Virus record (IMG/VR): IMGVR_UViG_3300020558_000217 | Location: 1 to 64,000 of that record | Reading direction: 5' to 3' (one strand) | DNA: 64,000 nucleotides | Source of the DNA: a virus | Part shown: positions 25-14,368 of the stretch, one piece after another | How the letters are laid out: every line of letters begins with the position of its first letter | Numbering within the stretch: position 1 is the stretch's first letter | Translations under genes and position numbers: made by a program | Notes under the pieces: model-generated | Database searches by the model: none | What the model saw: the letters and a program-made list of their open reading frames with translations, nothing else | What the model was told of the DNA's origin: nothing

Positions 25-1440
25 TTATTTATTGTCGTAATCTTTTGCAATTTTATCGCCATTATCGACATCTAAGTTGATTCTTTTTTGATCTGGATTA
101 ATAACTAAAACATTATCACCATAATCATAAACTTTTGTTTTGCCATCTTCAGCTCTAATTTTTTTATCGGCCATAGCTTTTTTGGCTTCGTCGATTACAT
201 TTTTGATAGTTGCCAATCTAGAAGTTTTTTCTTTAGAGGTTTTAGGATCAGCGCTCTTTCTACCAACGTATTCAATTGTCTTACGATCGCCTTTACGTGG
301 CATATTTTCAATTTGTTTACGTTCAGTTTCTTCTTTCATAGCATGTTTTTTGTGCGCTTTAGCATGACCGCGACTTATATTTGGTCTATGTAAATGCGAA
401 ACAGTATAATCAATATCATGTGGAACGCCAATCGTAGGTATACCAGCTACTTTTGGCTTTTCTTTTTCGCCCTTTGGTTCAGGAGGAGTTGGTGCTGCTG
501 ATGGTGGTGGTGTAGGAACTGGTAGTGGCAATGATTTTTCTTTTGGCTTATCTGCAGGCGCAGGAACAGGCGCAGGAACAGGTTTAGGTTCCTGTGGTTT
601 TGCCTTTATATCAATTGGTGGTAATTCAACAGGTTTTGTTGGTGTTTTTGTTTTAGCGGATTGTTCTTTTTGTCTTTCAAATTCGCTTTTGGTTTCGCCC
701 TTACTTGGCAGCAATCCACCAAAATCCGGATCAAGAACAAGACCTAATGTTGATGCAGCTCTACCACCAACAATTTTTCCTAGTTCGCTGGCATATCTAC
801 CAACTTTCGAAATTGTTCCTTCTGGAGGAGTTATTTTCGGAGCTTTAGTGGTAGTGGTTGTGACAGCAGTTGATGGTTTAACTTCGGGCGGTTCACCAAC
901 AGGCCCAAGTTTAATGTCTTTTTTGGGTTCTGCATAATCAGTAGTCATTTTGTTTAATTTTTCTATTTCTGCCTTTGAAGGAGCAGAAGTTGAAGATCTT
1001 TTAGCTTCTTCTAAAGAATCTTCAGTAACTTTATTATGCATAGTCATGCTACTCTTTTCTTTAGCAAGAGTACGCTGACGAGAAACGTTTTCTGGAGCCT
1101 GAGAATGACCTCCAGCACCAGCTGGTGGTTTAATATGAGGAGTCTGCGTTCTTACTGATTTAAACTGATTGCCTTTATAGTCATCAGTGCCAAGAATTCC
1201 AATGGCTTCGTCGGTTTTCTTTTTCTTACCATCTTCGGCATGAAGTTTGGGTTCACCACCAGTTCCGCTACCAATCAATCCACCAACATCTTCTTCTACT
1301 GGTTTGCTATCTTTGGCGCCATATGAAGATTCGTATTCTTTTGAGACAACCTTACGAATAGAATGTTCAAGGTTTTTCTTGTCGCCTTTGGCAGCTTTGC
1401 CTTCACGAATCTCTCTGATGATGTGTTCTAAACTTTTCAT
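25..1440 (-). CDS. Lys/Pro-rich hypothetical protein, probable head-internal protein
   Basis: Probable start MKSLEHIIRE at 1440, just after the dps stop; low complexity with recurring hydrophobic-x-E motifs. Confidence 0.5.
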   Translation of the reverse strand: MKSLEHIIREIREGKAAKGDKKNLEHSIRKVVSKEYESSYGAKDSKPVEEDVGGLIGSGTGGEPKLHAEDGKKKKTDEAIGILGTDDYKGNQFKSVRTQTPHIKPPAGAGGHSQAPENVSRQRTLAKEKSSMTMHNKVTEDSLEEAKRSSTSAPSKAEIEKLNKMTTDYAEPKKDIKLGPVGEPPEVKPSTAVTTTTTKAPKITPPEGTISKVGRYASELGKIVGGRAASTLGLVLDPDFGGLLPSKGETKSEFERQKEQSAKTKTPTKPVELPPIDIKAKPQEPKPVPAPVPAPADKPKEKSLPLPVPTPPPSAAPTPPEPKGEKEKPKVAGIPTIGVPHDIDYTVSHLHRPNISRGHAKAHKKHAMKEETERKQIENMPRKGDRKTIEYVGRKSADPKTSKEKTSRLATIKNVIDEAKKAMADKKIRAEDGKTKVYDYGDNVLVINPDQKRINLDVDNGDKIAKDYDNK

Positions 1441-1442
1441 TT

Positions 1443-1889
1443 TTATGCCTTTATGAACGATCTTAGCATCCAACCATGCTTCTGATGAGCAGTGATGCGG
1501 TCTTGTAACATATTTGAAACGCCATAGTGTTTATGTTTTTCGCATAGTTCATATGCAGCTGTAAGAGAAGCAATAACTCTTTCATTATCAGAAGCAAGTT
1601 TGCTAATCATAACTAAACCGTCAGGAATATTTGTTGCTTCTTCAATAGTTGTTAGCTCTAAAAACCTTTTCATTGATCCTGGAGCAAAAGCGTCTAGAGT
1701 TCTTATACCTTCAGCTATTAGATCAACAGCTTCTGATAATTCTTCATAGAGTTTTCCTAGAAATTTATGATACTCTGCAAAATGAGGACCAGTAACATTC
1801 CAATGATAACCTTGGACCTTAACACTGAAAACATAAGTGTCTGCCAATGCAACTTTAATTGCGTCATATGGTTCTATTTTACCGATCAT
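1443..1889 (-). CDS. dps: Dps family ferritin-like DNA protection protein
   Basis: HWNVTGPHFAEYHKFL...D.IAE.IR.L...H.K..WML signature, 148 aa. Confidence 0.92.
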   Translation of the reverse strand: MIGKIEPYDAIKVALADTYVFSVKVQGYHWNVTGPHFAEYHKFLGKLYEELSEAVDLIAEGIRTLDAFAPGSMKRFLELTTIEEATNIPDGLVMISKLASDNERVIASLTAAYELCEKHKHYGVSNMLQDRITAHQKHGWMLRSFIKA

Positions 1890-3649
1890 TTTTTCTTCTT
1901 TCCTGATTCCGATTCATCTTTTACGCTAGTAGTTGTTGGCTTGGAAACATATTTTTCACCAGCAACATTGGTCTGATATTCTTTTCCACCATAAGAAAAC
2001 TGTCCTCCAGCGCCGCCTTTTTCAGAACGAGCAGCTTGGAATGCTTGTCCACGTGAAAAGTACTCTGGTCTTGATGGTGGAGTTGGAGCATCTACTTTAG
2101 GTGCTGGTGGTTTTGGTGTATCATATTTCTGTGGTGTTAGTGTCTGTTTTTCGTAATCAGAAACCGAACGACCAGATGACTTATATGGATTATAACTCTT
2201 TAGTGTTTCTTGTCTTTTCTTTTCGTCCTCACCAGCGCCTGCAGGCGTTGGAGACATAACTGCCATCGCTGCAGTAGCTGCTGGACCGCCAGCTATTCTT
2301 GCTGCAGTTCCTAATCCTTTAGCAACTGTAGGTGCTGCCTTTGATACAACAGATGCTGCTTCTCTACCAGCAGATGTCATACCTTTTACAACTGGGCTGG
2401 TCTGTTTTGATGCAGCCATACCTTTACCAACATTTACACCGCCTTGTGAGAAAGATGTTCCTACTTTTGTTGGTGAAGCAGACATGCTACCACCACCTGA
2501 ACCCATTCTAGCTGATCCTGGTCTTGACCAGGATCTCTCAATAGAGGGCTGAACGCCAGAACTTACCCTGACATTAGGTCTAGCAGACATTGATCCACTT
2601 TGACCTGCCATTCTTCCACCTGTTCTACCAGATGTTTCTGTTGGTCTAGGTGCCTGTCTTTTTACACCAGGAACTTGCTGACCAACAACGGCAGGTGGCT
2701 GAACTGCTGGTGGCATTGCCATAGCAACTTCATAAATTCTTTCTTCACAATTCCACTTGCGTAGTGCCTTATTGATTCTTGAATCCGGATCGTTTGCTGT
2801 CTTGGCAGATGTTAGTCTCTTTTTCATTCCACCCATACGAGCACAGAATGACTTACGACGATTATATGCTTTACTGCCCTTCTTTAACTTTGAAGGTTTA
2901 GTTGTTACTGCTGTTTGTAACTTTGAGCCTGGATTTTCGCGACGATATGCCATAACGCCAGCTTTAGTTAATCCACCTTCTGGATTCTTATATTTTTTGT
3001 CCTGCCAATCTTCCTCTAGTTCGTCCATAGCATCAACAATCTCAATTGCTTCGCGAACCACTCTTTTGATAATTTGCCCAGGAGTTTGTTTTTTATAAAC
3101 ATCAACTAATTCATTAGAACCTACAAATCTTGATGCTGGATCGTTTGAATCTGTTGAATGCGCTTCGGCATCCTCTTCCTTTACAGGAACGCAATTAGGA
3201 ACCTTTTTACCGTTCTTCATCTTCATACCAATCTGTTGATAGCCCTTCCAACATGGATCAGAATCTTCGTTCTGAGACGCCTTTAGTGCGGCATCAGTTG
3301 GAGCACCCTTACTGCCTGGTTTACGCATGCGCTCACCGGAGCCAGCTTTAATTCTAGCACGTTTTGCATGGATATTATCCCAGAGGCCACGTTTTTCGTT
3401 TACTAAATCTTCGTCTAACATTTCAGCAAAACCTCCAGAGATAAATGAATTTACGCGATCAAATGCGAACGAATCTGGATTACCACCAAATGATTCGCTC
3501 CAGCATTGATAGCCTCTACGATATACTTCTTCTAGTATATCGACCGAATAACCTGAATTTTGGGATTTTTTATAAAGAGATAATTTGGCCTTGTCAGTGA
3601 GTACGACAGACTCGCCTAGCTGAGTTTCAAATGAATTAAACTTTTTCAT
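1886..3649 (-). CDS. Modular basic protein of T4-like phages, probably virion-internal
   Basis: Short modules typical of T4-like aquatic phages: EVYRRG..FDRVNSFI, GLWDNIHAKR, PCWKGY..VPNCVP, NPEGGL..RRKSFCARM..ALRKWNC. Confidence 0.6.
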   Translation of the reverse strand: MKKFNSFETQLGESVVLTDKAKLSLYKKSQNSGYSVDILEEVYRRGYQCWSESFGGNPDSFAFDRVNSFISGGFAEMLDEDLVNEKRGLWDNIHAKRARIKAGSGERMRKPGSKGAPTDAALKASQNEDSDPCWKGYQQIGMKMKNGKKVPNCVPVKEEDAEAHSTDSNDPASRFVGSNELVDVYKKQTPGQIIKRVVREAIEIVDAMDELEEDWQDKKYKNPEGGLTKAGVMAYRRENPGSKLQTAVTTKPSKLKKGSKAYNRRKSFCARMGGMKKRLTSAKTANDPDSRINKALRKWNCEERIYEVAMAMPPAVQPPAVVGQQVPGVKRQAPRPTETSGRTGGRMAGQSGSMSARPNVRVSSGVQPSIERSWSRPGSARMGSGGGSMSASPTKVGTSFSQGGVNVGKGMAASKQTSPVVKGMTSAGREAASVVSKAAPTVAKGLGTAARIAGGPAATAAMAVMSPTPAGAGEDEKKRQETLKSYNPYKSSGRSVSDYEKQTLTPQKYDTPKPPAPKVDAPTPPSRPEYFSRGQAFQAARSEKGGAGGQFSYGGKEYQTNVAGEKYVSKPTTTSVKDESESGKKKK

Positions 3650-3719
3650 ATGGAGTTTCCCTTGGGCTTTCCAATTATATGCGAGGTCTGGCGTACCCTT
3701 TTTACTCGCACTGACGTTT

Positions 3720-3727
3720 TATTTATA
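3720..3727 (-). promoter_or_regulatory. T4-type late promoter TATAAATA
   Basis: Exact TATAAATA on minus strand upstream of the ORF starting at 3649. Confidence 0.75.
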
Positions 3728-3734
3728 AAAGATC

Positions 3735-5048
3735 TTATCTTGAGATTTCTTCCCAATCCAGCGATGCGTATATATCAGCACCGGCGATATCTGATGCAGC
3801 GACTAATGTAAGCTCATAAGGACTAGAAGTTAGACCATTTCTTTCTAATTGAAACTTGAATAGTGCTTCTTTTAAAATGTCTACAGGCGTAGAACCCTGA
3901 TTAGAACCATTAGTCCATCCGGAAGCCAAAATTCTACCACCAGCGAAACTTGTGCCTGTAATATTATATTCAACAGCAGAATCGTCTCCTGCAGAAACCC
4001 ATGTTCCGCCTGTAGTTGCACCAGAAGCTACTACTCTCCAATTATAATTAGCATTGTTGGTTATTCCTAGTAATGATATAGCGGTAAGAATAATAATAGC
4101 ATCAAGTCTATCAGGAGAGACTTTTAGTCTTATCGAAACGACAGGATAATAAGTGTTGACTACAGTTAAATCTCTTGGAGCGCCAATAGCTGTTCCAACT
4201 GCTTGTTGGACACCTCTTAGTTCATATCCGCCTTCTGAAATTACAGAAGAACATACCTGTTTCAACGTTGTATTGCTTGCAGTTACGCCTGTGTTTTTAA
4301 TTTCATATCTCAAAGGAAGAGATGCAGTGGTCATATATGTTGTGGTAATAAAATTAGCATGATGAAATGAATGGCAGTGAATGAATTTACCGTCAATAAC
4401 GAAACCACATCTTACTGTACCTAGACCAAGCCATTCAATATCAATGAACATAATTTGGGCTTTGGTTAAATCCAAAGTTATGCCAGATGGACTTGAAGCG
4501 ACCTGACCCAACAGAGTGTCCATATTCCAATCAGACTGTGCTACTCTTGTTTCTTGCATTACTCCTGATGATAAAGACCTTTCAACCAAATATGCTGTAT
4601 TACCTGCCACCTCAAGATAAATGCCATTGTTAGCGCCATAATATCCTACACGCTGACGAACATTTGTTTTTGGCTGCATGACAAATGTTTGCAGAATTTG
4701 TAATGATTTGCCAGGTTGATAAGAGAAAACTTTAGTTGTTTCACGAATAATCTCAGCATTGTTGGCCGTTGTTAAATTAAGGTTTATTAGACCTTCGTTA
4801 TTAGAAAAGGCATAAGTTGCACCAGCAGTATTTGAAGTAGACCATAAATTATTATCGCGATAACGATGAGAAGAATCAAAAAGCGTTAGAGGAGTTGAAA
4901 CTCTGGCTCTTCCAAAAGCATCAACTGCAACTCCAGAAGGATTAGCAGCGCCAACCATATTTCCATATTGGTCAGCAATTTGCACAACTTCAAATAAAGT
5001 TTTATTGTCGCTTAAAAACTGATGTGTGTCTTTACGAAACTGTGCCAT
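3735..5048 (-). CDS. Beta-rich hypothetical phage protein, possibly structural
   Basis: 437 aa ORF, DAFGRARVSTPLTLFDSSHRY motif, S/T/N/G-rich. Confidence 0.5.
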   Translation of the reverse strand: MAQFRKDTHQFLSDNKTLFEVVQIADQYGNMVGAANPSGVAVDAFGRARVSTPLTLFDSSHRYRDNNLWSTSNTAGATYAFSNNEGLINLNLTTANNAEIIRETTKVFSYQPGKSLQILQTFVMQPKTNVRQRVGYYGANNGIYLEVAGNTAYLVERSLSSGVMQETRVAQSDWNMDTLLGQVASSPSGITLDLTKAQIMFIDIEWLGLGTVRCGFVIDGKFIHCHSFHHANFITTTYMTTASLPLRYEIKNTGVTASNTTLKQVCSSVISEGGYELRGVQQAVGTAIGAPRDLTVVNTYYPVVSIRLKVSPDRLDAIIILTAISLLGITNNANYNWRVVASGATTGGTWVSAGDDSAVEYNITGTSFAGGRILASGWTNGSNQGSTPVDILKEALFKFQLERNGLTSSPYELTLVAASDIAGADIYASLDWEEISR

Positions 5049-5956
5049 TACTTTTTCTTTCTGGTCTTTAGTGGATCGCCGTTAGGATCCGCTTCATAGT
5101 AAGATAGGGTTTTATCTCTAAAATTCATCTTATCTGGATCAAACGCCTTAAAACCTAACATCTTAGCCAAAGGATTTTCTGATTGTTTGATGCTATTTTT
5201 TAAATTGCCACGAAAAAACGTTGCATCAACATCATTAGTTGTAACAGAACTATCGACCGCTGGATCACCAGTAACATATCCAAACCCTCTGGCATCAGCA
5301 GTTGTTACTTGTTCTTTTAATTTCTTTGGCTTGGTTGGTTTTGCAGGTGCTTGTGCATTACGAATATCATTCATAAGAGAAGCTGCTTGTTCGTCTGACA
5401 TACGACTTGGCGCTCCTGCTCTGAAGTTCTCAAAATTACCAGAGCGAGCATGTTTTCTTTGACTTGTGCCCGAAACACCTTCAATGCCTTCAGCGTCCGG
5501 ATCTCTACCGCCAGCAGAATGAACAGAAATATTATCAAAATTAAAATAGCCATGTGTTCCTTCTTGACCATTGTATTTTGATAACAGCTGTTGAAACTGA
5601 TCTACTCTATCTTGACCAACAACTAGATGAAGGTTCTTTACGCCTTTTTTGTGTAAATCTGATGCATGATATAATAGACTTGGCGATTCAGGAGAAGAAG
5701 TTGAAACATTTGAGCCAGGAAAAGCTAATTTAGCATGTCTTAGTTTCTGCTCAGCAGTCAATGGGTTTTTATCGCCATCAAAGGAATGTGATAATACTAT
5801 ACTATGACCAGCATCGAAGTTCTTAGCAAGATCCATAACATGATTGACAACACGTTCATGGCCAATCGTTGGAGGATTGGCTCTCATGAATGTCATGACA
5901 TGAGTTGCTTTATCAGCTTCTGCTAGAAAGTAATTACTGAAGTTGAGCTTCTGCAT
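5048..5956 (-). CDS. Cytidylyltransferase-like (HxGH superfamily) nucleotidyltransferase
   Basis: RANPPTIGH, KNPL, VVGQDR, SAGGRDPD, GVSGT motifs. Confidence 0.8.
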   Translation of the reverse strand: MQKLNFSNYFLAEADKATHVMTFMRANPPTIGHERVVNHVMDLAKNFDAGHSIVLSHSFDGDKNPLTAEQKLRHAKLAFPGSNVSTSSPESPSLLYHASDLHKKGVKNLHLVVGQDRVDQFQQLLSKYNGQEGTHGYFNFDNISVHSAGGRDPDAEGIEGVSGTSQRKHARSGNFENFRAGAPSRMSDEQAASLMNDIRNAQAPAKPTKPKKLKEQVTTADARGFGYVTGDPAVDSSVTTNDVDATFFRGNLKNSIKQSENPLAKMLGFKAFDPDKMNFRDKTLSYYEADPNGDPLKTRKKK

Positions 5957-7160
5957 TTGCTACCTGCTGTTTTTGGAATGCGCCCTTCAAGAAATTTAGG
6001 CGATTAAATTCTCTTCTATTGTTGAACTTTGAAGCGTTGCCTTTTTTGTCGACAACAACTGTTCCTTCTGGACCAGTATGCTCACCAGCAACACTATGTT
6101 CATATGGAACATTTTTAGCCAGAACATTAGTCAATACATTTTTAGCACTTTGTAAATGATTATGAAGCTGTAACGCTCTATCAAAGTGTTCTCTATTGTT
6201 ACTAATATGAGAAAGCACTTCGCCATGAGCTTGAATCTTTTTCTGCTTAGAAGCGTCTGTCTTAACTTTGTCTAGATCTTTCTGATGACGAGCAGTCAAA
6301 TGATCCATATAACCTTGAACTGAAGGTTCACCGCCAGTTCTAATCATACTATTGACATGTGCTTCTAAATTTTCTCCATGTCCATCCAATGCTTCCAATG
6401 CTTCTGGTTTCATAGAAGAATAGATTCTCTTAGCTTTGTCCATATGATTTAAGAATGCTTTTTGTTCTTCTGGACTATAGTTGGAAGAATTGACATCAAT
6501 TGTCGGATCTATATTATTAACATCTGGATGTTCTTTAAACTTAGCACGTGTTTTAGCATCAAGTGGTTGCGCAGACATACTCCCTAAACCGCCTTTACCG
6601 GCATATTTTGTATGAACAACAACACCAAGTTTCTTATTCATATTTCTACCCTCTGCAGAATCTGCAGGAGCTGAGTATGTTAAGGTATTAGGAGTAACAG
6701 AAGTTTTACCATTTTTAGTAACTGCGTCGCCTTCTGTATGCATTAAATCTCCCTGATATACACCACCTTCGCGTGGCATAATATTAGGAAGATGTTTTAG
6801 AGATTGTTTTAGTTTTTCAACTAATCCTGGAGCATGGCCATGATTGTTTTCAATGTCTTCATCTGTATAATTAATTTTTGGGGTTTTATTGAAAGCCGAT
6901 TTAGAAGCTACGAAAAATTGGCCAGTTTCAGGATGTTGACCAAATACAATAGAAGGAGCTCCATCATATTTTGTAGAAGCATGTAAACTTGATTTCTTAC
7001 CAAGTAACATATCATGCATACCACGGAGATGCTCATCTGCAGTTGCTACGCCTTCGTGACCTCCATGAATGACATAATCTTCAATGTGTCGAAGGTGTTT
7101 TAATGCTTTGCCTTTTACTTCTTCTTGTTCTGCTAAAAATGTTTTAAAATCTATTCTCAT
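5934..7160 (-). CDS. Conserved T4-like protein with ligase-like KxDG motif
   Basis: HLRHIED, TKYDGAPSIVFG, FFVASKSAFNK, YQGDLM, EGTVV. Confidence 0.6.
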   Translation of the reverse strand: MRIDFKTFLAEQEEVKGKALKHLRHIEDYVIHGGHEGVATADEHLRGMHDMLLGKKSSLHASTKYDGAPSIVFGQHPETGQFFVASKSAFNKTPKINYTDEDIENNHGHAPGLVEKLKQSLKHLPNIMPREGGVYQGDLMHTEGDAVTKNGKTSVTPNTLTYSAPADSAEGRNMNKKLGVVVHTKYAGKGGLGSMSAQPLDAKTRAKFKEHPDVNNIDPTIDVNSSNYSPEEQKAFLNHMDKAKRIYSSMKPEALEALDGHGENLEAHVNSMIRTGGEPSVQGYMDHLTARHQKDLDKVKTDASKQKKIQAHGEVLSHISNNREHFDRALQLHNHLQSAKNVLTNVLAKNVPYEHSVAGEHTGPEGTVVVDKKGNASKFNNRREFNRLNFLKGAFQKQQVANAEAQLQ

Positions 7161-8431
7161 ATTCCTGAATCCTGATATCCCATGTGAGAACTTCTATCTA
7201 CGTATGCCTGATAATGTTTAGGAGGAACGTTTTGGCTTGGTCCTTCGCCCCTTACTACTCCAAACTCTCCGGTGTTTACATTTGCCGCTGCAGGTTTAGG
7301 AGTTTTTTTAACTTTAGTTGGCGCTGCTTTTATTTCTGGAGTTGTAGATTTACTTGTTTTGGTTTTTCTACCTTCTCTCAACATAGGAGCTTTGGTGAAA
7401 GAGTTGAACCCTCTACCAGAAAATGTTCTGGTCTTTTTCATGCCAATTTCCATGGCCTTTTCAAAGCCATCAGAGCCTCTTCTTCTGCCCTCTATTACCG
7501 TAGATATTCCGCCTGTGTGAGGTCTCACTCTAAACTCTTCAAAGTTATTTAACACATTATTTGCATGATCTTGAATATCATGAGTCTCGTGATTGACTGT
7601 GCCATTATTATTAACTTGTGTGTGATGTCTTATATGAAGATATTTTGTTTCTGGTGAGATAATATTTTTTATAGATTCTCTTAATTTATCCGAAGAATGT
7701 TTAGCGAGTCCTTCAGTGAATCTTCTGGACATTTCTTTTTGTGTGTTTAATGAGTGTTCATCAATAGAGGCTGCAGTTGGATGATTCTCTTTAGCTAAAC
7801 TTTTATACTCAGCGTCACCTGCTTTACCAGTAGCCAAACCAAGATTTCTAATATGATCGTAATGAGATTCTCTTAAACCTTCAAGATCACCTTTTTTAAG
7901 ACCAGCAATTTTTTCCAGAGCATCTAGACCATTACCTCTTAAGTTTGGATCTTTTTGCTTACCATACTTCATACTAAGACCAATTGGGTCTAGCATCTTA
8001 CCGCCTTGGTCCGAACCTTTTACCATTAAGTCAGCGTCTGAATTGGGATCATCAACACCAGTAAATCTCTCATGATCGCCTTTTTGAGAAGTCCAAGCTA
8101 AATGATGGACGTTTTGGACGCCCCTATTTGCTAATTGCTCTTTTAAATGTTCAGCTGCTTGTTGAGAATGTTTGACAACGTCTTCATACATTCCAGGGGA
8201 TAATTTTTCTAATGCTGTTTTAATTTTGTTATGAACTTCTTGAGGTCTGAAGCCGTCTTCGTCTCTATAATGCTCTAGGAACTTTTTGGGCATTCCTGTT
8301 TGAGGATGAGATCCATGTAAAAGATAAGAACCTGCTAAAATTTCAAAGAGTTTGCCCTTAGCATCTTCAGTGTTTTTTAGTTCAAATTCAGCTTTTCTTC
8401 CTTCAGTCAGGAAATTAGAGAATGATATCAT
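7157..8431 (-). CDS. Putative PD-(D/E)xK-fold nuclease-like protein
   Basis: GKLFEIL...SDADLMV...IGLSMK pattern; N-terminus MISFSNFLTE. Confidence 0.45.
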   Translation of the reverse strand: MISFSNFLTEGRKAEFELKNTEDAKGKLFEILAGSYLLHGSHPQTGMPKKFLEHYRDEDGFRPQEVHNKIKTALEKLSPGMYEDVVKHSQQAAEHLKEQLANRGVQNVHHLAWTSQKGDHERFTGVDDPNSDADLMVKGSDQGGKMLDPIGLSMKYGKQKDPNLRGNGLDALEKIAGLKKGDLEGLRESHYDHIRNLGLATGKAGDAEYKSLAKENHPTAASIDEHSLNTQKEMSRRFTEGLAKHSSDKLRESIKNIISPETKYLHIRHHTQVNNNGTVNHETHDIQDHANNVLNNFEEFRVRPHTGGISTVIEGRRRGSDGFEKAMEIGMKKTRTFSGRGFNSFTKAPMLREGRKTKTSKSTTPEIKAAPTKVKKTPKPAAANVNTGEFGVVRGEGPSQNVPPKHYQAYVDRSSHMGYQDSGI

Positions 8432-8461
8432 TGTTGACCTCGTATGAAGAATTATTTCTTG

Positions 8462-8469
8462 TATTTATA
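8462..8469 (-). promoter_or_regulatory. T4-type late promoter TATAAATA
   Basis: Exact motif about 30 nt upstream of the ORF starting at 8431. Confidence 0.75.
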
Positions 8470-8474
8470 AATGC

Positions 8475-8502
8475 AAAAAGGGCGAGCCTTTCGACTCGCC
8501 CC
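8475..8502 (-). terminator. Rho-independent terminator
   Basis: Minus strand GGGCGAGTC-GAAA-GGCTCGCCC followed by TTTTT. Confidence 0.85.
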
Positions 8503-8973: not shown

Positions 8974-9177
8974 TTATTCTCCTTGTCGTTGCGCCGAAGC
9001 CCGATGGTAATATCTTTCAAAGATATGCAGCCTATCCTCTTCGGAATAACTATCAGGAATTGGTACTCCTTTAACTAACATCCATATTTCCTCTGCCATC
9101 ATTAATCTAAACTTCTTATCACTTAAATCCTTCGAACTTGCTTCGATCAAACCTTGATTTTGGCCTTCCACGTTCAT
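8974..9177 (-). CDS. Small hypothetical protein (true start probably further downstream)
   Basis: ORF fills the gap between gp41 and the bfd-like gene. Confidence 0.4.
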   Translation of the reverse strand: MNVEGQNQGLIEASSKDLSDKKFRLMMAEEIWMLVKGVPIPDSYSEEDRLHIFERYYHRASAQRQGE

Positions 9178-10525
9178 TTTCTTCCTCCATGAACTTGCCC
9201 TTATCCATCACTGGGCGATCATCAACCAATCCATCTTGACCAGATTGTTCAACATCGTATAATCGCATTTTGCTACGGTCAATCCCAAGCACAAACCTAC
9301 GATTACTCCCAGGATCAGAATAACGATTCTTGAGCTGTTTAACCATGATCTGGCTGAGACTTTCAAGTTCTTCACTGGAGATGAGTGCAAACATAAAATC
9401 AGCTGTGGCTGGGAGTCCAAAGGATTCCGATGTATCTTCCAGTCCCACGTCTGAGTTCGAATAGCCGCTTCTAGTTGTTTGAGTTGCTGAGACGATAGGG
9501 ACGTCGTACTCAACTGCCAACCCACGGAGCTCTTCTGCGATTGCTTTGACAAGGGTATAAGAATTGACGTTGGCTCCATGCTTGATCCTCGATGACAAAC
9601 AAATATTCAGATAATCAACATAGATAATATCTGGTTCGAAATTTTTCTTAATACGTAGTTCATTCAACAGATGTCTAAAATTAGCAGAACCTGCACAAGC
9701 AGTAGGATATTCCTTGATAATCAACTTACCTGTATACTTTTCTTTCAACCGATTGATCTTAGTGTCATACGACTGCTTGGGCATAAGTTCTAGTTCATCA
9801 ACAGCAGTATCTAGTAGGTTTGCGTCGATACGTTCTGCGATGCGTTCTTCTGCCATTTCGAGTGTGATATACAGGACGTTAAGTCCTTTGGTAAGATTTG
9901 CTGCGGCACAGTGACACATGAATAAGGATTTACCAACGCCAGTACCGGCCAATGCGATGTTGAGAGTTTTGTTAGGGAGACCACCATTTGTGATGACGTT
10001 GAAGTAGTCAAGATCGAAAGGAACTCTCTTCTCTTTACGATGGTAGAATTCGTATCTCTCATCGCTATCAGCCAAAAAGTCATGACCAATATGGGTATCA
10101 AAAGAGACACCGAGAGCGTCAGTAAGAATTGACGGTATACTGCCTTTGGAGATAGATCCATTTTTTTCATCCATAATTTGGATTGACTTCATGATCGCAA
10201 GATATAGTGCTTTATCTTGACAAAACTTTTCAGTTTGATCTAGTAGCCAGTCCAATTTAGTTTGTGAATCATGTTCAAGACTCGATATTATCTCTTTAGC
10301 AATCTTGAACAACTGTTCGTTTAGACCTTCTTTATTAGACAGGTCAATGGCCAAAGCCTCAATAGAAGGAAATGAGTTATACTTCCTAACATAATCATCA
10401 ACTAGGTCAAATACAACCTTTTCATTATAATCCTGAAAGTATTCTGATTTTAGAAATGGGATTACTTTGCGACCATACTCGTCATTGAACAATAAATTTG
10501 ATAGAATTGTTCTTTCAATGCTCAT
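9119..10525 (-). CDS. 41: T4 gp41-like replicative DNA helicase
   Basis: LAGTGVGKS Walker A, ITLEMAEE, VDYLNI, SATQTTR, KQLKNRY. Confidence 0.95.
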   Translation of the reverse strand: MSIERTILSNLLFNDEYGRKVIPFLKSEYFQDYNEKVVFDLVDDYVRKYNSFPSIEALAIDLSNKEGLNEQLFKIAKEIISSLEHDSQTKLDWLLDQTEKFCQDKALYLAIMKSIQIMDEKNGSISKGSIPSILTDALGVSFDTHIGHDFLADSDERYEFYHRKEKRVPFDLDYFNVITNGGLPNKTLNIALAGTGVGKSLFMCHCAAANLTKGLNVLYITLEMAEERIAERIDANLLDTAVDELELMPKQSYDTKINRLKEKYTGKLIIKEYPTACAGSANFRHLLNELRIKKNFEPDIIYVDYLNICLSSRIKHGANVNSYTLVKAIAEELRGLAVEYDVPIVSATQTTRSGYSNSDVGLEDTSESFGLPATADFMFALISSEELESLSQIMVKQLKNRYSDPGSNRRFVLGIDRSKMRLYDVEQSGQDGLVDDRPVMDKGKFMEEENERGRPKSRFDRSKFEGFK

Positions 10526-10534
10526 GAATATTTA

Positions 10535-11587
10535 TTACTCCCCTTCTGCCTCATCATCATAAACTAAAGTTCCTTCAGTGTCAAGCGAATACTTGCGTTT
10601 GATGTATGCAGCAAAATCAGTATCTTTGAATATTGTCATCCAAAATTCTTTACTGTCCACAATATCAGCCGCTCTGAAGTTCTTTCCAGAAACTTCCCCA
10701 GTCGTCCTATCCACGACGGCGTACCACCCAACTTTTGGTTTAGCCACATAACCGCCTTCGAGGGCAATATCGAGAAGACCGCTCCAACGATTAATGCCGC
10801 CTTCATAAGAGACAGTAACTGGGATTTTAGATTTTTCGCGGACGTAACGAGATTTTTCAACGTTGATAACGAAATGATATCCCTGAATCTCTGTGCCATC
10901 TTTATCCTGTTGTCTACCTAGAATCCAAATATTGTCAGCGCCATAATAAGCACCAGTTCCACCACCAACGATATCTTTAGGAAACATACCAATTTCTTTG
11001 TAAGTATGATTAACCGCCACAAGGGGAATATCTTTCAACGTAAGATGAGGAGTGATCATTCGGAATAGAGATTTTAGCTGCTTGGCACGTGACATATCAG
11101 CAACTGATTTTTCGTTCAATGCATCTTCGACTTCTTTCTTAGAAGCAAGATTACCAATAGAATCAATAATAATCAGAACTTGATCATCACGAGTAATTTC
11201 TTTCAGCTGCTTCATAAGATCAAACTTTAGTTCTTCAACATCAGTAATTGGTGTATGAACAACCGAGTCGAGAGGAATCTTGAATTTAGTAAAGTATGAC
11301 TGTGGCGTGCCAAACTCTGAATCATAGAAAAGAATAACACCATCCGGATACTTCTTAAGAAACGAAGATGCCAGAAGTAGAGCAAATCCAGTTTTAAAGT
11401 GCTTCGATGGACCTGCTAGCATTGTCAGTCCAGGAGTAATACCACCATCAATAGATCCTGACAATGCCACATTGATCATAGGCACTGGCGTCTGGATCAT
11501 ATCTTTCTTTGTATAAATCTTGGAATCTGTAAGCGTGGAAGTATAATCTATCGTACTGTTTTTAATCAAACGTTCTTTCAGTGACAT
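10535..11587 (-). CDS. uvsX: UvsX RecA-like recombinase
   Basis: AGPSKHFKT, YDSEFG, DSIGNLASKKE, GGGTG. Confidence 0.95.
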   Translation of the reverse strand: MSLKERLIKNSTIDYTSTLTDSKIYTKKDMIQTPVPMINVALSGSIDGGITPGLTMLAGPSKHFKTGFALLLASSFLKKYPDGVILFYDSEFGTPQSYFTKFKIPLDSVVHTPITDVEELKFDLMKQLKEITRDDQVLIIIDSIGNLASKKEVEDALNEKSVADMSRAKQLKSLFRMITPHLTLKDIPLVAVNHTYKEIGMFPKDIVGGGTGAYYGADNIWILGRQQDKDGTEIQGYHFVINVEKSRYVREKSKIPVTVSYEGGINRWSGLLDIALEGGYVAKPKVGWYAVVDRTTGEVSGKNFRAADIVDSKEFWMTIFKDTDFAAYIKRKYSLDTEGTLVYDDEAEGE

Positions 11588-11639: not shown

Positions 11640-11900
11640 TCAACTCTTAATATAAGCATCCATCTTTTTTATGAACGCATCAATATTTTTTACTCGATCA
11701 GCGCCATTCCATTTAATAATATCTTTATCAGGATTCTTTTTTAGATTTAATAGAAGTGGCATAATCATCTTACGTAGACCCTCTAGTTTTACTTGAGTAT
11801 TTCCTAGCTGATCTTGTAATTCTAACTCTCCTGCTTTCAATTCGTCTTCTGAAGTAAAACCGAAGTCGAATTCGAAATCATTGTCCTCTAGTTCTGTCAT
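11640..11900 (-). CDS. Hypothetical protein downstream of gp43
   Basis: DFGF...PLLLNLKKNPDK..IKW; overlaps the gp43 stop. Confidence 0.65.
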   Translation of the reverse strand: MTELEDNDFEFDFGFTSEDELKAGELELQDQLGNTQVKLEGLRKMIMPLLLNLKKNPDKDIIKWNGADRVKNIDAFIKKMDAYIKS

Positions 11901-14368
11901 GAGAAAAAGTCCTCTAGTGTTGATTTTTGTTCTGTTGACCAGTTAATAACATCAGTGATGGAATTAAGCGGTTCCAAGAACGATTTGTTGAATTGTGTCT
12001 CGCGATCAATATACTTATCTAGATGAATCAATTCCTTTGGAAGTTCGTCAGGAACTGCAATTACTGATTCTTGGAGAGGATTAGGTGTCTTCAAATAAGC
12101 AAATCTAATTTTATCACCATCTGAAATTCTAGGAACATTTTTCAATTTATTCTTATCTAGAATGTGATTGAATATCAATGCGCCTTTGACGTGAATTGGC
12201 GTTCCCTTCTTATAAACTATAGACTTGTCAATATATTTGTACATTCCTTTCACACCACGTGGAAAGGCAACATCCTCAAAAGGCAATGTTAGAAACTCTT
12301 CACGAAACTGCTTAATAAACTCATGAAGCTCTTCTTGAGTGCCATTCATAATTATCGAGAGACATCTTTTAATGTTTTCTCGACACGCCTTCGGAGTGCT
12401 CGAACGTACCGCCTCAATACCCTGGAGTTTGAGTTTGGGTTCAGCATATTGTACGCCTTCAACATTCCAAGCGTTGAGGATATACATTTTCTTGCCACGC
12501 CAAATACCTTTGTTCGCAATTGTTTCCCTCTTCATTTTCATCTTTTGTTGATAGGAGTTCATATAAACCGCAAGTTCATCATAACATCTATCAAGATAAG
12601 GTTGTATCTTTTGTTCGCAGAATTGATCAATCGCATCAACAATTTTCAATTCATCATTAGTATCTAGGTGTGCTACTAGAGCATCCATTTCAACATAGAT
12701 AGAATCAGTATCTGATGCAATAACATAATCAACTTTATCAGTTTTCAATAGCTTATTGATAAATTCGTTTACCTTACGTTCAATCCAACGAATGGATAAC
12801 TGACCGGACATAGTAATTGCTTCGGAATGATCGAAACTGAACCAACGAAAGAACTGATTCGCCAACGCACCGTAAGCTGAGTTTAGCTGAATCTTTTTGG
12901 CCATCTGCATATTATGATAACGAGCAACTAACTTCTCATCTTCTGAGTTAGGATTTTTCTCATAACGCTGCTTGGCTTCGATCATTAATTTCTTATACTT
13001 GGTACGGTCATTATACATACGCTCCATCAATGCAGGTAAGAAACCCTGATGATCTTTGCGATACAAACAGCCATTGGCTGCATGTGAATATTCTTTATTG
13101 AACTTATCAACCTCAAAAGTGCCACGTAACAATTCATCAACTGAAGGAAAAGGAATTTTAGTTACGAATGTTTCTGGGCTGATATTATATTGCATAATAA
13201 GATGAGGATACAGGCTGTTCAAATCAAAAGAAACAACCCATTTACTCAAACCAATCTTAGGTTCCTTAACATGACCGCCAATCAAAGAACCTTCCATAAG
13301 TTGTTTTCTCAAAGAAGGAATAACGATATTCTTTTCTAGGAGATAGTTATGAATAATAATATCCCATGGTCGCACAGTTGTCATAACATCAGGGTAGTTA
13401 ACCTTAGCATCATATGACAACGCCATAGTTTGTTCGAGAAACTTTAACTTATCATCTAAACGATCAACCAGAACACAATCGTGAATATTATACTCGATAA
13501 ACTTTTGGAAGTTGTTCTTATATAGTTCCAAAAGATTACCATATTCTGAATAGTCGATTTTCTTTTCGCCGAGTTCAACTTGTGCAATAAAGTCCAGTTT
13601 ATAGGATTCTTGATTGCCAAACATAAATTTACGATATAGTTGGTAATAATCAAGAACGGATATTCCAGCAGGATTATAAGACTGGTTTTCCTTTCCTCGA
13701 AACTCAACAATCTTTTCATCGAGAATGCGCCATGGCGATAAGCGTTTAGCTTCTCTTTCATTAAAAAGATTTTTAATACGATTAACAGTGTACGGTATAT
13801 CAAAGAACTCAATATTCCAACCTGTTATTATGTCTAGATCTAGCCCTTCCCAACATTCGAGAAACTGTTGAATAAGTTGGTATTCGTCTTTGCACTGGAT
13901 GTAATGTGTATTTGGGTCGTCGCTGTTAAACTCTCCGCAACCAAATACAAAGTTACGATTGCGACTACGCAAAGTAATTGCGGTAATTGGCTTATCAGCT
14001 TTTTGAATATCTGGGAAACCTTCATCGGCAGCACACTCAATATCTATTGTTGCAACGTTAACAAGTTTAGGATCGTAATCGATATCGCCCTTGAATATGT
14101 CAAAAATATACAAGTAAGGAAACGTCGTTAGACCATAAATTTCCATATTAGAAACCTGGTCATAACGACTGATAAAATCCCTAGCTTCAGTGATTGAGTC
14201 GAACTCTAGTTTCTCTACTGGTTTACCATCAAGAGTTTTATATTTACCATTCTGCTTTGCAATAAACAAATATGGTTTGTAATTTACAACATCAGTATAT
14301 CTTAAACCTTTATCAAAACCTCGCACATACATGCGATTTCCACGTTGAAATACATTTGTATAAAACAT
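11897..14368 (-). CDS. 43: Family B DNA polymerase (gp43)
   Basis: DIEC exonuclease I, SFDLNSLYPH, KIQLNSAYG, ASDTDS. Confidence 0.97.
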   Translation of the reverse strand: MFYTNVFQRGNRMYVRGFDKGLRYTDVVNYKPYLFIAKQNGKYKTLDGKPVEKLEFDSITEARDFISRYDQVSNMEIYGLTTFPYLYIFDIFKGDIDYDPKLVNVATIDIECAADEGFPDIQKADKPITAITLRSRNRNFVFGCGEFNSDDPNTHYIQCKDEYQLIQQFLECWEGLDLDIITGWNIEFFDIPYTVNRIKNLFNEREAKRLSPWRILDEKIVEFRGKENQSYNPAGISVLDYYQLYRKFMFGNQESYKLDFIAQVELGEKKIDYSEYGNLLELYKNNFQKFIEYNIHDCVLVDRLDDKLKFLEQTMALSYDAKVNYPDVMTTVRPWDIIIHNYLLEKNIVIPSLRKQLMEGSLIGGHVKEPKIGLSKWVVSFDLNSLYPHLIMQYNISPETFVTKIPFPSVDELLRGTFEVDKFNKEYSHAANGCLYRKDHQGFLPALMERMYNDRTKYKKLMIEAKQRYEKNPNSEDEKLVARYHNMQMAKKIQLNSAYGALANQFFRWFSFDHSEAITMSGQLSIRWIERKVNEFINKLLKTDKVDYVIASDTDSIYVEMDALVAHLDTNDELKIVDAIDQFCEQKIQPYLDRCYDELAVYMNSYQQKMKMKRETIANKGIWRGKKMYILNAWNVEGVQYAEPKLKLQGIEAVRSSTPKACRENIKRCLSIIMNGTQEELHEFIKQFREEFLTLPFEDVAFPRGVKGMYKYIDKSIVYKKGTPIHVKGALIFNHILDKNKLKNVPRISDGDKIRFAYLKTPNPLQESVIAVPDELPKELIHLDKYIDRETQFNKSFLEPLNSITDVINWSTEQKSTLEDFFS

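Follow-up and report, generated by a model that had tools for sequence, protein, structure and literature searches.

Probable capsid-targeting leaders on nuclease-, ligase- and nucleotidyltransferase-like proteins in a late gene cluster of a freshwater T4-like phage

The cargo that phage T4 is known to direct into its head by means of an N-terminal capsid-targeting sequence (CTS) consists only of small anti-restriction internal proteins (IPs) plus one enzyme, Alt. Propeptides of this type span 10-19 residues, with a hydrophobic or aromatic residue at positions 4 and 7. Two of these, IPII and IPIII, both start with MKTYQEFIAE followed by Ala (sequences of ipII and ipIII taken for comparison from NC_000866). 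The first 10 residues of IPIII suffice for encapsidation in T4, and amber-suppressor work has assigned CTS residues 4 and 7 to targeting and residues 8 and 10 to processing (PMC9026906). The T4 prohead protease gp21 cuts after Glu at ITE, LTE and LIE sites (PMC5694885, PMC9026906). Here we describe a cluster of seven genes, p1 to p7, on the minus strand of a 64,000-nucleotide stretch of viral DNA (the window; positions 1 to 64,000 of IMG/VR record IMGVR_UViG_3300020558_000217), which is part of a 105.6-kb contig with an estimated completeness of 62%. Five of the seven encoded proteins start with T4-CTS-like peptides, while p4 and p6 are leaderless. For p1, p2 and p3 the reading of these peptides as CTS is well supported by comparative and literature evidence. 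The explanation that best covers the whole, to which we give a probability of roughly 0.6, is that the cluster is a late cargo module of a T4-like (Kyanoviridae-like) freshwater phage, encoding enzymes that are loaded into the head by a CTS and injected. The mechanism is the known one of T4; the cargo and the phage group are new.

An initial sequence-only reading of this region drew attention to five similar N-terminal peptides, and all five are present on the minus strand: MISFSNFLTE in p1, MRIDFKTFLAE in p2, MQKLNFSNYFLAE in p3, MKKFNSFETQLGE in p5 and MKSLEHIIRE in p7. They end in LTE at residue 10, LAE at residue 11, LAE at residue 13, LGE at residue 13 and IRE at residue 10, respectively. 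The likeness to the T4 CTS that was claimed for the whole set extends to the functional positions in p1, p2 and p3, which follow a strict aromatic pattern, whereas p5 and p7 have only a looser, aliphatic form. The p1 leader, M-I-S-F4-S-N-F7-L8-T-E10, presents the same four functional positions as the T4 CTS, and in p2 and p3 the aromatic pattern is shifted by 1 and 3 residues relative to F4 and F7 of p1. The p7 leader is a variant in which positions 4, 7 and 8 are aliphatic and position 10 is Glu, and that of p5 is a loose form ending in LxE; both are kept in orthologues, and the case for a CTS is weaker in these two proteins than in p1 to p3. All five leader proteins are basic (isoelectric point, pI, 8.65-9.8) and the two leaderless ones are not.

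The strict pattern (^M.{0,6}[FYW].{2,3}[FYW][LI].E) was run on every called gene of the contig and of a relative, G001, a 162-kb genome that is 98% complete (loci L023-L031). Only p1, p2 and p3 matched among the 135 genes of the contig, and only their adjacent orthologues among the 230 genes of G001 (three matches in each). The chance level was estimated from shuffled N-termini, which gave 0.2-0.34 expected matches, and from internal Met positions, which gave 0-0.27.

Conservation of the leader was followed in relatives, with gene neighbourhoods taken from IMG/VR loci. A profile search of 1.84 billion representatives returned 222 clusters of the p1 family at 50% identity, and the strict leader is found in 65 of the 146 Met-starting representatives listed for these clusters. 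It is also present in 98 of the 120 closest relatives of p2, the remainder being mostly near-variants (e.g. V at -2) or mis-called starts. The 192 leader-bearing p1 and p2 homologues yield the consensus M(-9) [I/L] x F(-6) [K/S] x [F/Y](-3) [L/I](-2) x E(0), with 133 of them having Met at -9, 186 having F at -6 and all having F/Y at -3; L/I at -2 is likewise found in all, as the pattern used for collecting the leaders itself demands both this and E at 0. The residue most often seen at +1 is Ala. Since Met lies exactly at -9 in 133 of 192 leaders, the length and register of the tag are the same as in the T4 CTS. In alignments of 42 homologues each, F4 and E10 of the p1 leader are invariant down to 37% identity, as are F5 and E11 of the p2 leader down to 55% identity. 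Many p1-family leaders are followed, after 6-10 residues, by a second (F/Y/L)L(I/V/T)E motif (e.g. P0196, P0216, P0226, P0228 and P0230), which suggests two nested protease sites like those of giant-phage propeptides.

The leader also behaves as a unit separable from the proteins that carry it. In AlphaFold models of p1 and p2 it lies outside the folded domains, with a predicted local distance difference test score (pLDDT) below 50. The DUF6267 proteins of cyanophages and of Pelagibacter phage HTVC008M, which are homologous to p2, have no leader: their sequence opens on …KHLEHLED, where the structured part starts. The p1 family, too, has a leaderless branch; its proteins, of about 520 residues, open directly on NDxKGKLxE, the first conserved motif of the fold. 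Members of this branch (P0171, P0176, P0186, P0193, P0197, P0199, P0207 and P0209) have a long C-terminal extension and may be cytoplasmic, non-packaged forms. Where p2 and p3 are fused, the leader is found at the N-terminus of the fusion only. A module that is portable between unrelated folds excludes shared ancestry as the cause of the likeness between leaders.

Late expression had been proposed on the ground that the five genes lie downstream of TATAAATA promoters. Two such T4-type late promoters were found, at 8462-8469 and 3720-3727, which are the only minus-strand TATAAATA sites in the region, and each of them heads an operon, p1-p2-p3-p4 and p5-p6-p7, and not a single gene. The first lies 30 nt 5′ of the p1 ATG, with a GAGG Shine-Dalgarno sequence in between, and is preceded by an intrinsic terminator at 8479-8502 on the same strand, in which a GC-rich stem of 10 bp leads into a T run and which ends the unit upstream of the promoter. 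The second lies 71 nt 5′ of the p5 ATG. Over the whole window the count of TATAAATA is not above chance (10 observed, 6.95 expected), and the evidence from this motif is its placement 30 nt before p1 and right after a strong terminator, not its count. The genes p1 (7157-8431, 424 residues), p2 (5934-7160, 408 residues) and p3 (5048-5956, 302 residues) were correctly described as consecutive and overlapping: p1 and p2 share ATGA, p2 and p3 overlap by 23 nt, and p3 joins p4 in TAATG. The genes p5, p6 and p7 are likewise translationally coupled. Both operons are, on these sequence features, predicted to be expressed late.

Cargo directed by a T4-type CTS calls for a gp21-family (Peptidase_S77) prohead protease and a gp22/gp23-type head. 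Neither gp21 nor gp23 was found on the contig, which is 62% complete and without the head module, and the protease was therefore sought in G001, which has the same cluster order and encodes proteins 73% identical to p1 and 92% identical to p2. There, a Peptidase_S77 (gp21) protease gene (E 6e-36) adjoins a scaffold-like gene and gp23.

Published virion proteomes of relatives give indirect evidence of packaging. The 'cytidylyltransferase' gp154 of cyanophage S-CREM2 was detected with 3 peptides in CsCl-purified virions (PMC10665884), and S-SZBM1_140 was detected in CsCl-purified virions along with its neighbour S-SZBM1_139 (PMC9146016). Both gp154 and S-SZBM1_140 are homologues of p3 (E 2e-25 and 5e-25) and both have p3-type leaders, MKNFSSFLTE… and MRFRQFIIE…, respectively. 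The leaderless DUF6267 protein SSZBM1_141, encoded next to S-SZBM1_140, is not in the virion-table rows of that study considered here (PMC9146016). According to the authors of the S-CREM2 study, cytidylyltransferases are often found in cyanophage virions (PMC10665884). A targeting sequence is mentioned in neither paper. In the literature searched, no earlier report of this leader was found; a search on capsid targeting sequences in cyanophages returned only the T4 review (PMC9026906), and no papers were found on DUF6267 or 'cytitidyltransferase'.

The shared leader might instead be a docking peptide for a target other than the prohead, such as a partner protein, the membrane or a replication/packaging factory, in which case the enzymes would act late in the producing cell and not after injection, e.g. 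by processing DNA or RNA ahead of packaging. The leader is predicted, at low confidence, to be a short amphipathic helix, and leaderless versions of p1 and p2, presumably cytoplasmic, exist. The position of the cluster also fits such a role, since it directly follows the replication genes: gp43 DNA polymerase (11897-14368), UvsX (10535-11587) and gp41 helicase (9119-10525) precede it on the minus strand, in an order common to HTVC008M and the cyanophages S-PM2 and S-SZBM1 (all Kyanoviridae). However, the leader agrees exactly with the T4 CTS at the four functional positions and ends in a gp21-type cleavage site, leader-bearing p3 homologues were found in virions, and the late operon includes a gene for a virion structural protein. 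We regard docking outside the prohead as improbable, if the most serious of the competing explanations. As the tags of p1 to p3 match the head-loading tag of T4, these proteins are probably delivered ready-made with the DNA, and their packaging in this phage is, judging from sequence, on balance probable.

The enzymatic nature of the cargo was addressed by profile searches and by structure prediction with Foldseek, the check that had been proposed alongside the first description. The suggestion that p1 is PD-(D/E)xK-like is borne out by its predicted fold. No Pfam, PHROG or NCBIfam family matches p1, none of 50,697 isolate phage records contains a match, and the family is seen only in metagenomes; PDB sequence and profile searches returned nothing for p1 or p2, so that fold comparison alone was informative. 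The p1 model (pLDDT 82.6, core above 90) matches HinP1I with a Foldseek E of 3e-4 (probability 1.00) and a VIA Z score of 9.9, with 226 of 247 residues aligned at a root-mean-square deviation of 4.9. MspI follows with Z 8.5, further PD-(D/E)xK nucleases score lower, and the structural neighbours in the Atlas are viral clusters, some with RE_HaeIII, followed by the MspI and HinP1I families. The modelled p1 is a HinP1I/MspI-like PD-(D/E)xK fold at residues 17-355, between the leader (residues 1-10) and a basic disordered tail (356-424). In the homologue alignment E30, D134 and K155 do not vary and S153 hardly varies, giving D-x18-SxK. This spacing is reminiscent of the D-x18-QxK motif of HinP1I. 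The genes 5′ of DUF6267 in HTVC008M and S-SZBM1 were considered as p1 homologues and rejected, as hhalign gave no detectable similarity. At locus L015 (2174-5290), a 1038-residue protein has the p1 nuclease domain as its N-terminal third; that it might also contain p2 was dismissed, the other ~660 residues being unrelated to p2 and without a Pfam match.

The second protein, p2, matches DUF6267 with E 2e-86 and had been called ligase-like on account of a KxDG motif; both the motif, invariant in its K, D and G, and an RNA-ligase-like predicted fold were recovered. The model (pLDDT 89) comprises the leader (residues 1-11) and a nucleotidyltransferase fold with a helical insert at ~230-349. Its matches are mostly ATP-dependent RNA and DNA ligases, at middling Foldseek E values of 0.017-0.3, with VIA Z scores of 8.1 for NgrRnl, 7.8 for Trl1, 7.5 for REL1, 6.8 for T4 Rnl2 and 6.3 for T4 Rnl1 over 180-216 residues; a phage RNA ligase in BFVD matches with E 1.1e-3. 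Motif I is K64-Y-D66-G67, and over the 42 homologues further candidate motifs are YQGDLM (Q136 and D138 invariant), EGxVV (E365 and G366 invariant) and an invariant K378. The modelled p2 resembles an RNA ligase in fold, at middling scores.

These conserved residues bear on the possibility that the proteins are packaged as structural or DNA-condensing internal proteins in which enzyme folds were co-opted for a role that needs no catalysis. All of them are basic and, as in T4 internal proteins, have disordered tails rich in Lys; p1 has SxK instead of the usual catalytic motif, and ligase motifs III and IV of p2 are non-canonical. Yet deep alignments show little or no variation at the predicted catalytic residues, namely E30, D134 and K155 in p1, K64, D66, G67, E365, G366 and K378 in p2, and H33 and S162 in p3. 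Such invariance is hard to explain without catalysis, and a purely structural role is considered unlikely.

The third protein was noted as an HxGH nucleotidyltransferase, and is indeed of the HIGH type, the motif here reading TIGH. After the leader (residues 1-13), it has a nucleotidyltransferase domain and a basic C-terminal tail. It matches PHROG cytidyltransferase families with E 1e-51 and 2e-34 and Pfam CTP_transf_like at 14.5 bits, below the cut-off of 21. H33 of TIGH is invariant and an SxxxxR motif is conserved, with S162 invariant. The p3 profile aligns over both motifs to MJ0951 (PDB 3gmi, E 9e-6), with PPAT, RibF and NMNAT ranking lower, and the comparison resolves p3 to the HIGH superfamily only, and to no narrower substrate class. 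By its sequence motifs p3 is identified as a HIGH-type nucleotidyltransferase, the 'cyanophage cytidylyltransferase'.

The proteins p2 and p3 form a single polypeptide in loci L007, L008, L011 and L013 and in S-PM2, and 38 of the 120 closest relatives of p2 are at least 560 residues long, consistent with p2-p3 fusion. Fusion in so many phages suggests that p2 and p3 act together as a pair, and theirs is the only functional link for which the genomes offer direct support. In HTVC008M (L001 7709-8368), a gene for a Zeta-toxin/AAA_33 P-loop kinase lies between DUF6267 and a nucleotidyltransferase fusion gene; a kinase beside a ligase-like gene is a hint of nucleic-acid end healing and sealing.

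It has also to be considered that p3, together with p2, has an ordinary auxiliary metabolic function, for instance an NMNAT-like or glycerol-3-phosphate cytidylyltransferase-like one, that its detection in virions is carry-over, and that the leaders are alike by shared ancestry of a few N-terminal codons. Cyanophage papers do class the cytidylyltransferase as an auxiliary metabolic gene, and the authors of the proteome themselves raise contamination. Against this, the same leader is found on three unrelated folds and is thus not explained by shared protein ancestry, it is gained and lost as a module, and its strict pattern occurs in no other gene of the contig or of G001, which renders a merely metabolic role similarly unlikely. 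That the N-termini resemble one another and the T4 CTS by chance is effectively refuted and highly improbable, for although the motif is short and its loose [LIVF]xE form common (22 of 130 N-termini), three adjacent genes match where 0.2-0.3 are expected, and hundreds of homologues keep the leader residues unchanged.

The preferred explanation, loading by a CTS followed by injection, can be formulated as a sequence of steps. The proteins p1 to p3, and probably the basic disordered p5 and p7, would be made late and carry at their N-terminus a short propeptide of consensus M-[I/L]-x-F-[K/S]-x-[F/Y]-[L/I]-x-E, which like the T4 CTS would dock the protein on the scaffolding core during prohead assembly. 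A gp21-family prohead protease would cut after Glu at (L/I)-x-E, and the mature enzymes would remain beside the DNA in the head until their ejection into the next host, where they would arrive before phage gene expression. In this scheme, p1 would be a separate cargo, a PD-(D/E)xK nuclease whose most likely targets, as infection begins, are nucleic acids of the host or of competitors. An RNA-ligase-like enzyme, p2, for which a covalent intermediate of Lys64 and a nucleoside monophosphate (NMP) is expected, would be paired with p3 as HIGH-motif nucleotidyltransferase. Docking, cleavage and ejection in this phage, as well as the substrate of every enzyme, are what we infer. The co-injected cut/adenylate/ligate kit envisaged in the sequence-only reading is plausible on these sequence grounds.

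Several observations weigh against this explanation. The contig is without the head module and the protease is seen only in a relative, and the interaction of CTS and scaffold may not extend from T4 to phages as distant as these. The S-CREM2 authors warn that abundant late proteins could co-purify with virions (PMC10665884). Among the proteins themselves, p5 stands outside the strict leader pattern, p1 has SxK as opposed to the (D/E/Q/N)xK of most family members, and p2 gives only middling structural matches (Z ~8; Foldseek E >0.01), with D for E in motif III and a motif IV without Lys. In addition, a nuclease packed beside the genome needs protection, and a DNA methyltransferase is found in neither genome: PF01555, PF00145 and PF02086 have no match in the contig or G001.

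The oligonucleotide content of these genomes is of interest in this respect. AAGCTT is the most avoided 6-mer, with 0 copies both in the contig (14-35 expected) and in G001 (31-55 expected). GTAC and CGCG are also depleted in both, 2.5- to 4-fold. Avoidance of AAGCTT as a signature that tracks p1 was rejected, since it fails in the more distant p1-bearing loci and is limited to the closest relatives (L003-L006) and L015. This distribution may reflect host restriction and not p1 specificity, and avoidance of host restriction explains the missing AAGCTT equally well. One may speculate, at the risk of being wrong in what we hold to be a rather improbable proposal, that in a large uncultured group of freshwater and marine T4-like phages a portable CTS tag pre-loads heads with a nucleic-acid toolkit. 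A methyltransferase-less nuclease would be evaded by purging AAGCTT, and the p2-p3 pair would repair or re-cap RNA, or restore an adenylylated cofactor such as nicotinamide adenine dinucleotide (NAD), within the first seconds and before phage transcription. If true, such phages would inject a kit for counter-defence and host takeover of which no phage example is known to have been described.

The remaining genes of the cluster are of a different character. The last gene of the first late operon, p4 (3735-5048, minus strand, 437 residues), encodes a virion structural protein (phrog_1645) that lacks a CTS-like leader. Identity between p4 and its homologues in the cyanophages S-RIM50, S-WAM2 and S-RIM12 is 61-66%, while for p2 and p3 of the same operon the identity to cyanophage counterparts is only ~30-38%, and the cyanophage p4 gene lies elsewhere in the genome; the contrast suggests recent exchange or unusually strong constraint. 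In the second operon, all on the minus strand, p5 (1886-3649, 587 residues, pI 9.8) is largely low-complexity with a DUF6321 domain and shares a segment with S-SZBM1_139, the virion-detected protein mentioned above. The third gene of that operon, p7 (25-1440, 471 residues, pI 9.5), is Lys/Pro-rich and has no family match; its start is the ATG at 1440, 2 bases past the p6 stop, and not TTG 1473 of the longest open reading frame. Both p5 and p7 are long, basic and largely disordered, resembling internal proteins. Between these two proteins with CTS-like leaders lies p6 (1443-1889, 148 residues), a leaderless Dps/ferritin-like DNA-binding protein translationally coupled to both, which could be a late or virion-associated DNA-protecting protein.

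If the CTS explanation is true and the tag loads these enzymes in abundant environmental phages, it would account for the recurrent 'cytidylyltransferase' in cyanophage virion proteomes and provide the first functional assignment for DUF6267 and for the unnamed p1 family (~220 clusters at 50% identity). It would furthermore make the injected proteins of metagenomic T4-like phages predictable by a simple rule on sequence, and point to new host-takeover or counter-defence activities in the first minute of infection.

The locus can be compared with five described systems. Packaging of a site-specific DNA nuclease by a virus has a precedent in the chloroviruses, where virions of PBCV-1 contain a restriction endonuclease and host DNA is degraded within minutes of entry (PMC7019647); the corresponding role of p1 is inferential. 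Chloroviruses belong to another virus realm, use another packaging mechanism, and protect their own DNA by adjacent cognate methyltransferases, unlike the phages studied here, in which none was found. With the monomeric type II enzymes HinP1I, MspI and HaeIII, p1 shares the fold, the whole of HinP1I mapping to p1 residues 14-355. It differs in having no sequence-level likeness to them, in its added helical insert, leader and basic tail, in Ser in place of the Gln/Asn/Glu of the xK motif, and in that a companion methyltransferase was not found.

The nucleotidyltransferase-domain fold of the ATP-dependent RNA ligases (T4 Rnl1 and Rnl2, NgrRnl, the Trl1 ligase domain and REL1) is predicted in p2, with the invariant motif I KxDG on the expected strand-loop. 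In contrast to these ligases, p2 has a ~120-residue helical insert between motifs IIIa and IV and is without an OB or other known C-terminal domain, and a HIGH nucleotidyltransferase is often fused to it, an architecture not known for ligases. The cyanophage 'cytidylyltransferase' core gene (S-CREM2 gp154, S-SZBM1_140 and the S-PM2 Cytitidyltransferase) is homologous to p3, with 28-38% identity over the nucleotidyltransferase domain, and shares with it the neighbourhood after gp43, UvsX and gp41 and, in the two virion-detected members, the leader; p3 differs by its extra basic C-terminal tail. This gene has been treated in the literature as an auxiliary metabolic gene or an unexplained virion-associated protein, and no mention of a CTS-like leader or a link to DUF6267 was found in the literature searched.

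The closest parallel remains the T4 CTS system itself, comprising IPI, IPII, IPIII, Alt and gp21. The phages described here are distant from T4, being Kyanoviridae-like rather than Straboviridae, their putative cargo proteins p1 to p3 are unrelated to the IPs and to Alt, and the leader consensus differs at non-critical positions. The systems are alike in an N-terminal leader of 10 residues in which positions 4 and 7 are aromatic, position 8 is L/I and position 10 is Glu, often with Ala at +1, in the (L/I)xE cleavage site, in TATAAATA late promoters, in basic cargo and in the gp21-family protease, here encoded by the relative G001. Enzymes as cargo have their T4 precedent in Alt, an ADP-ribosyltransferase, and the leader of p1 to p3 would be a natural variant of the tag that is already used for loading foreign proteins into T4 heads.

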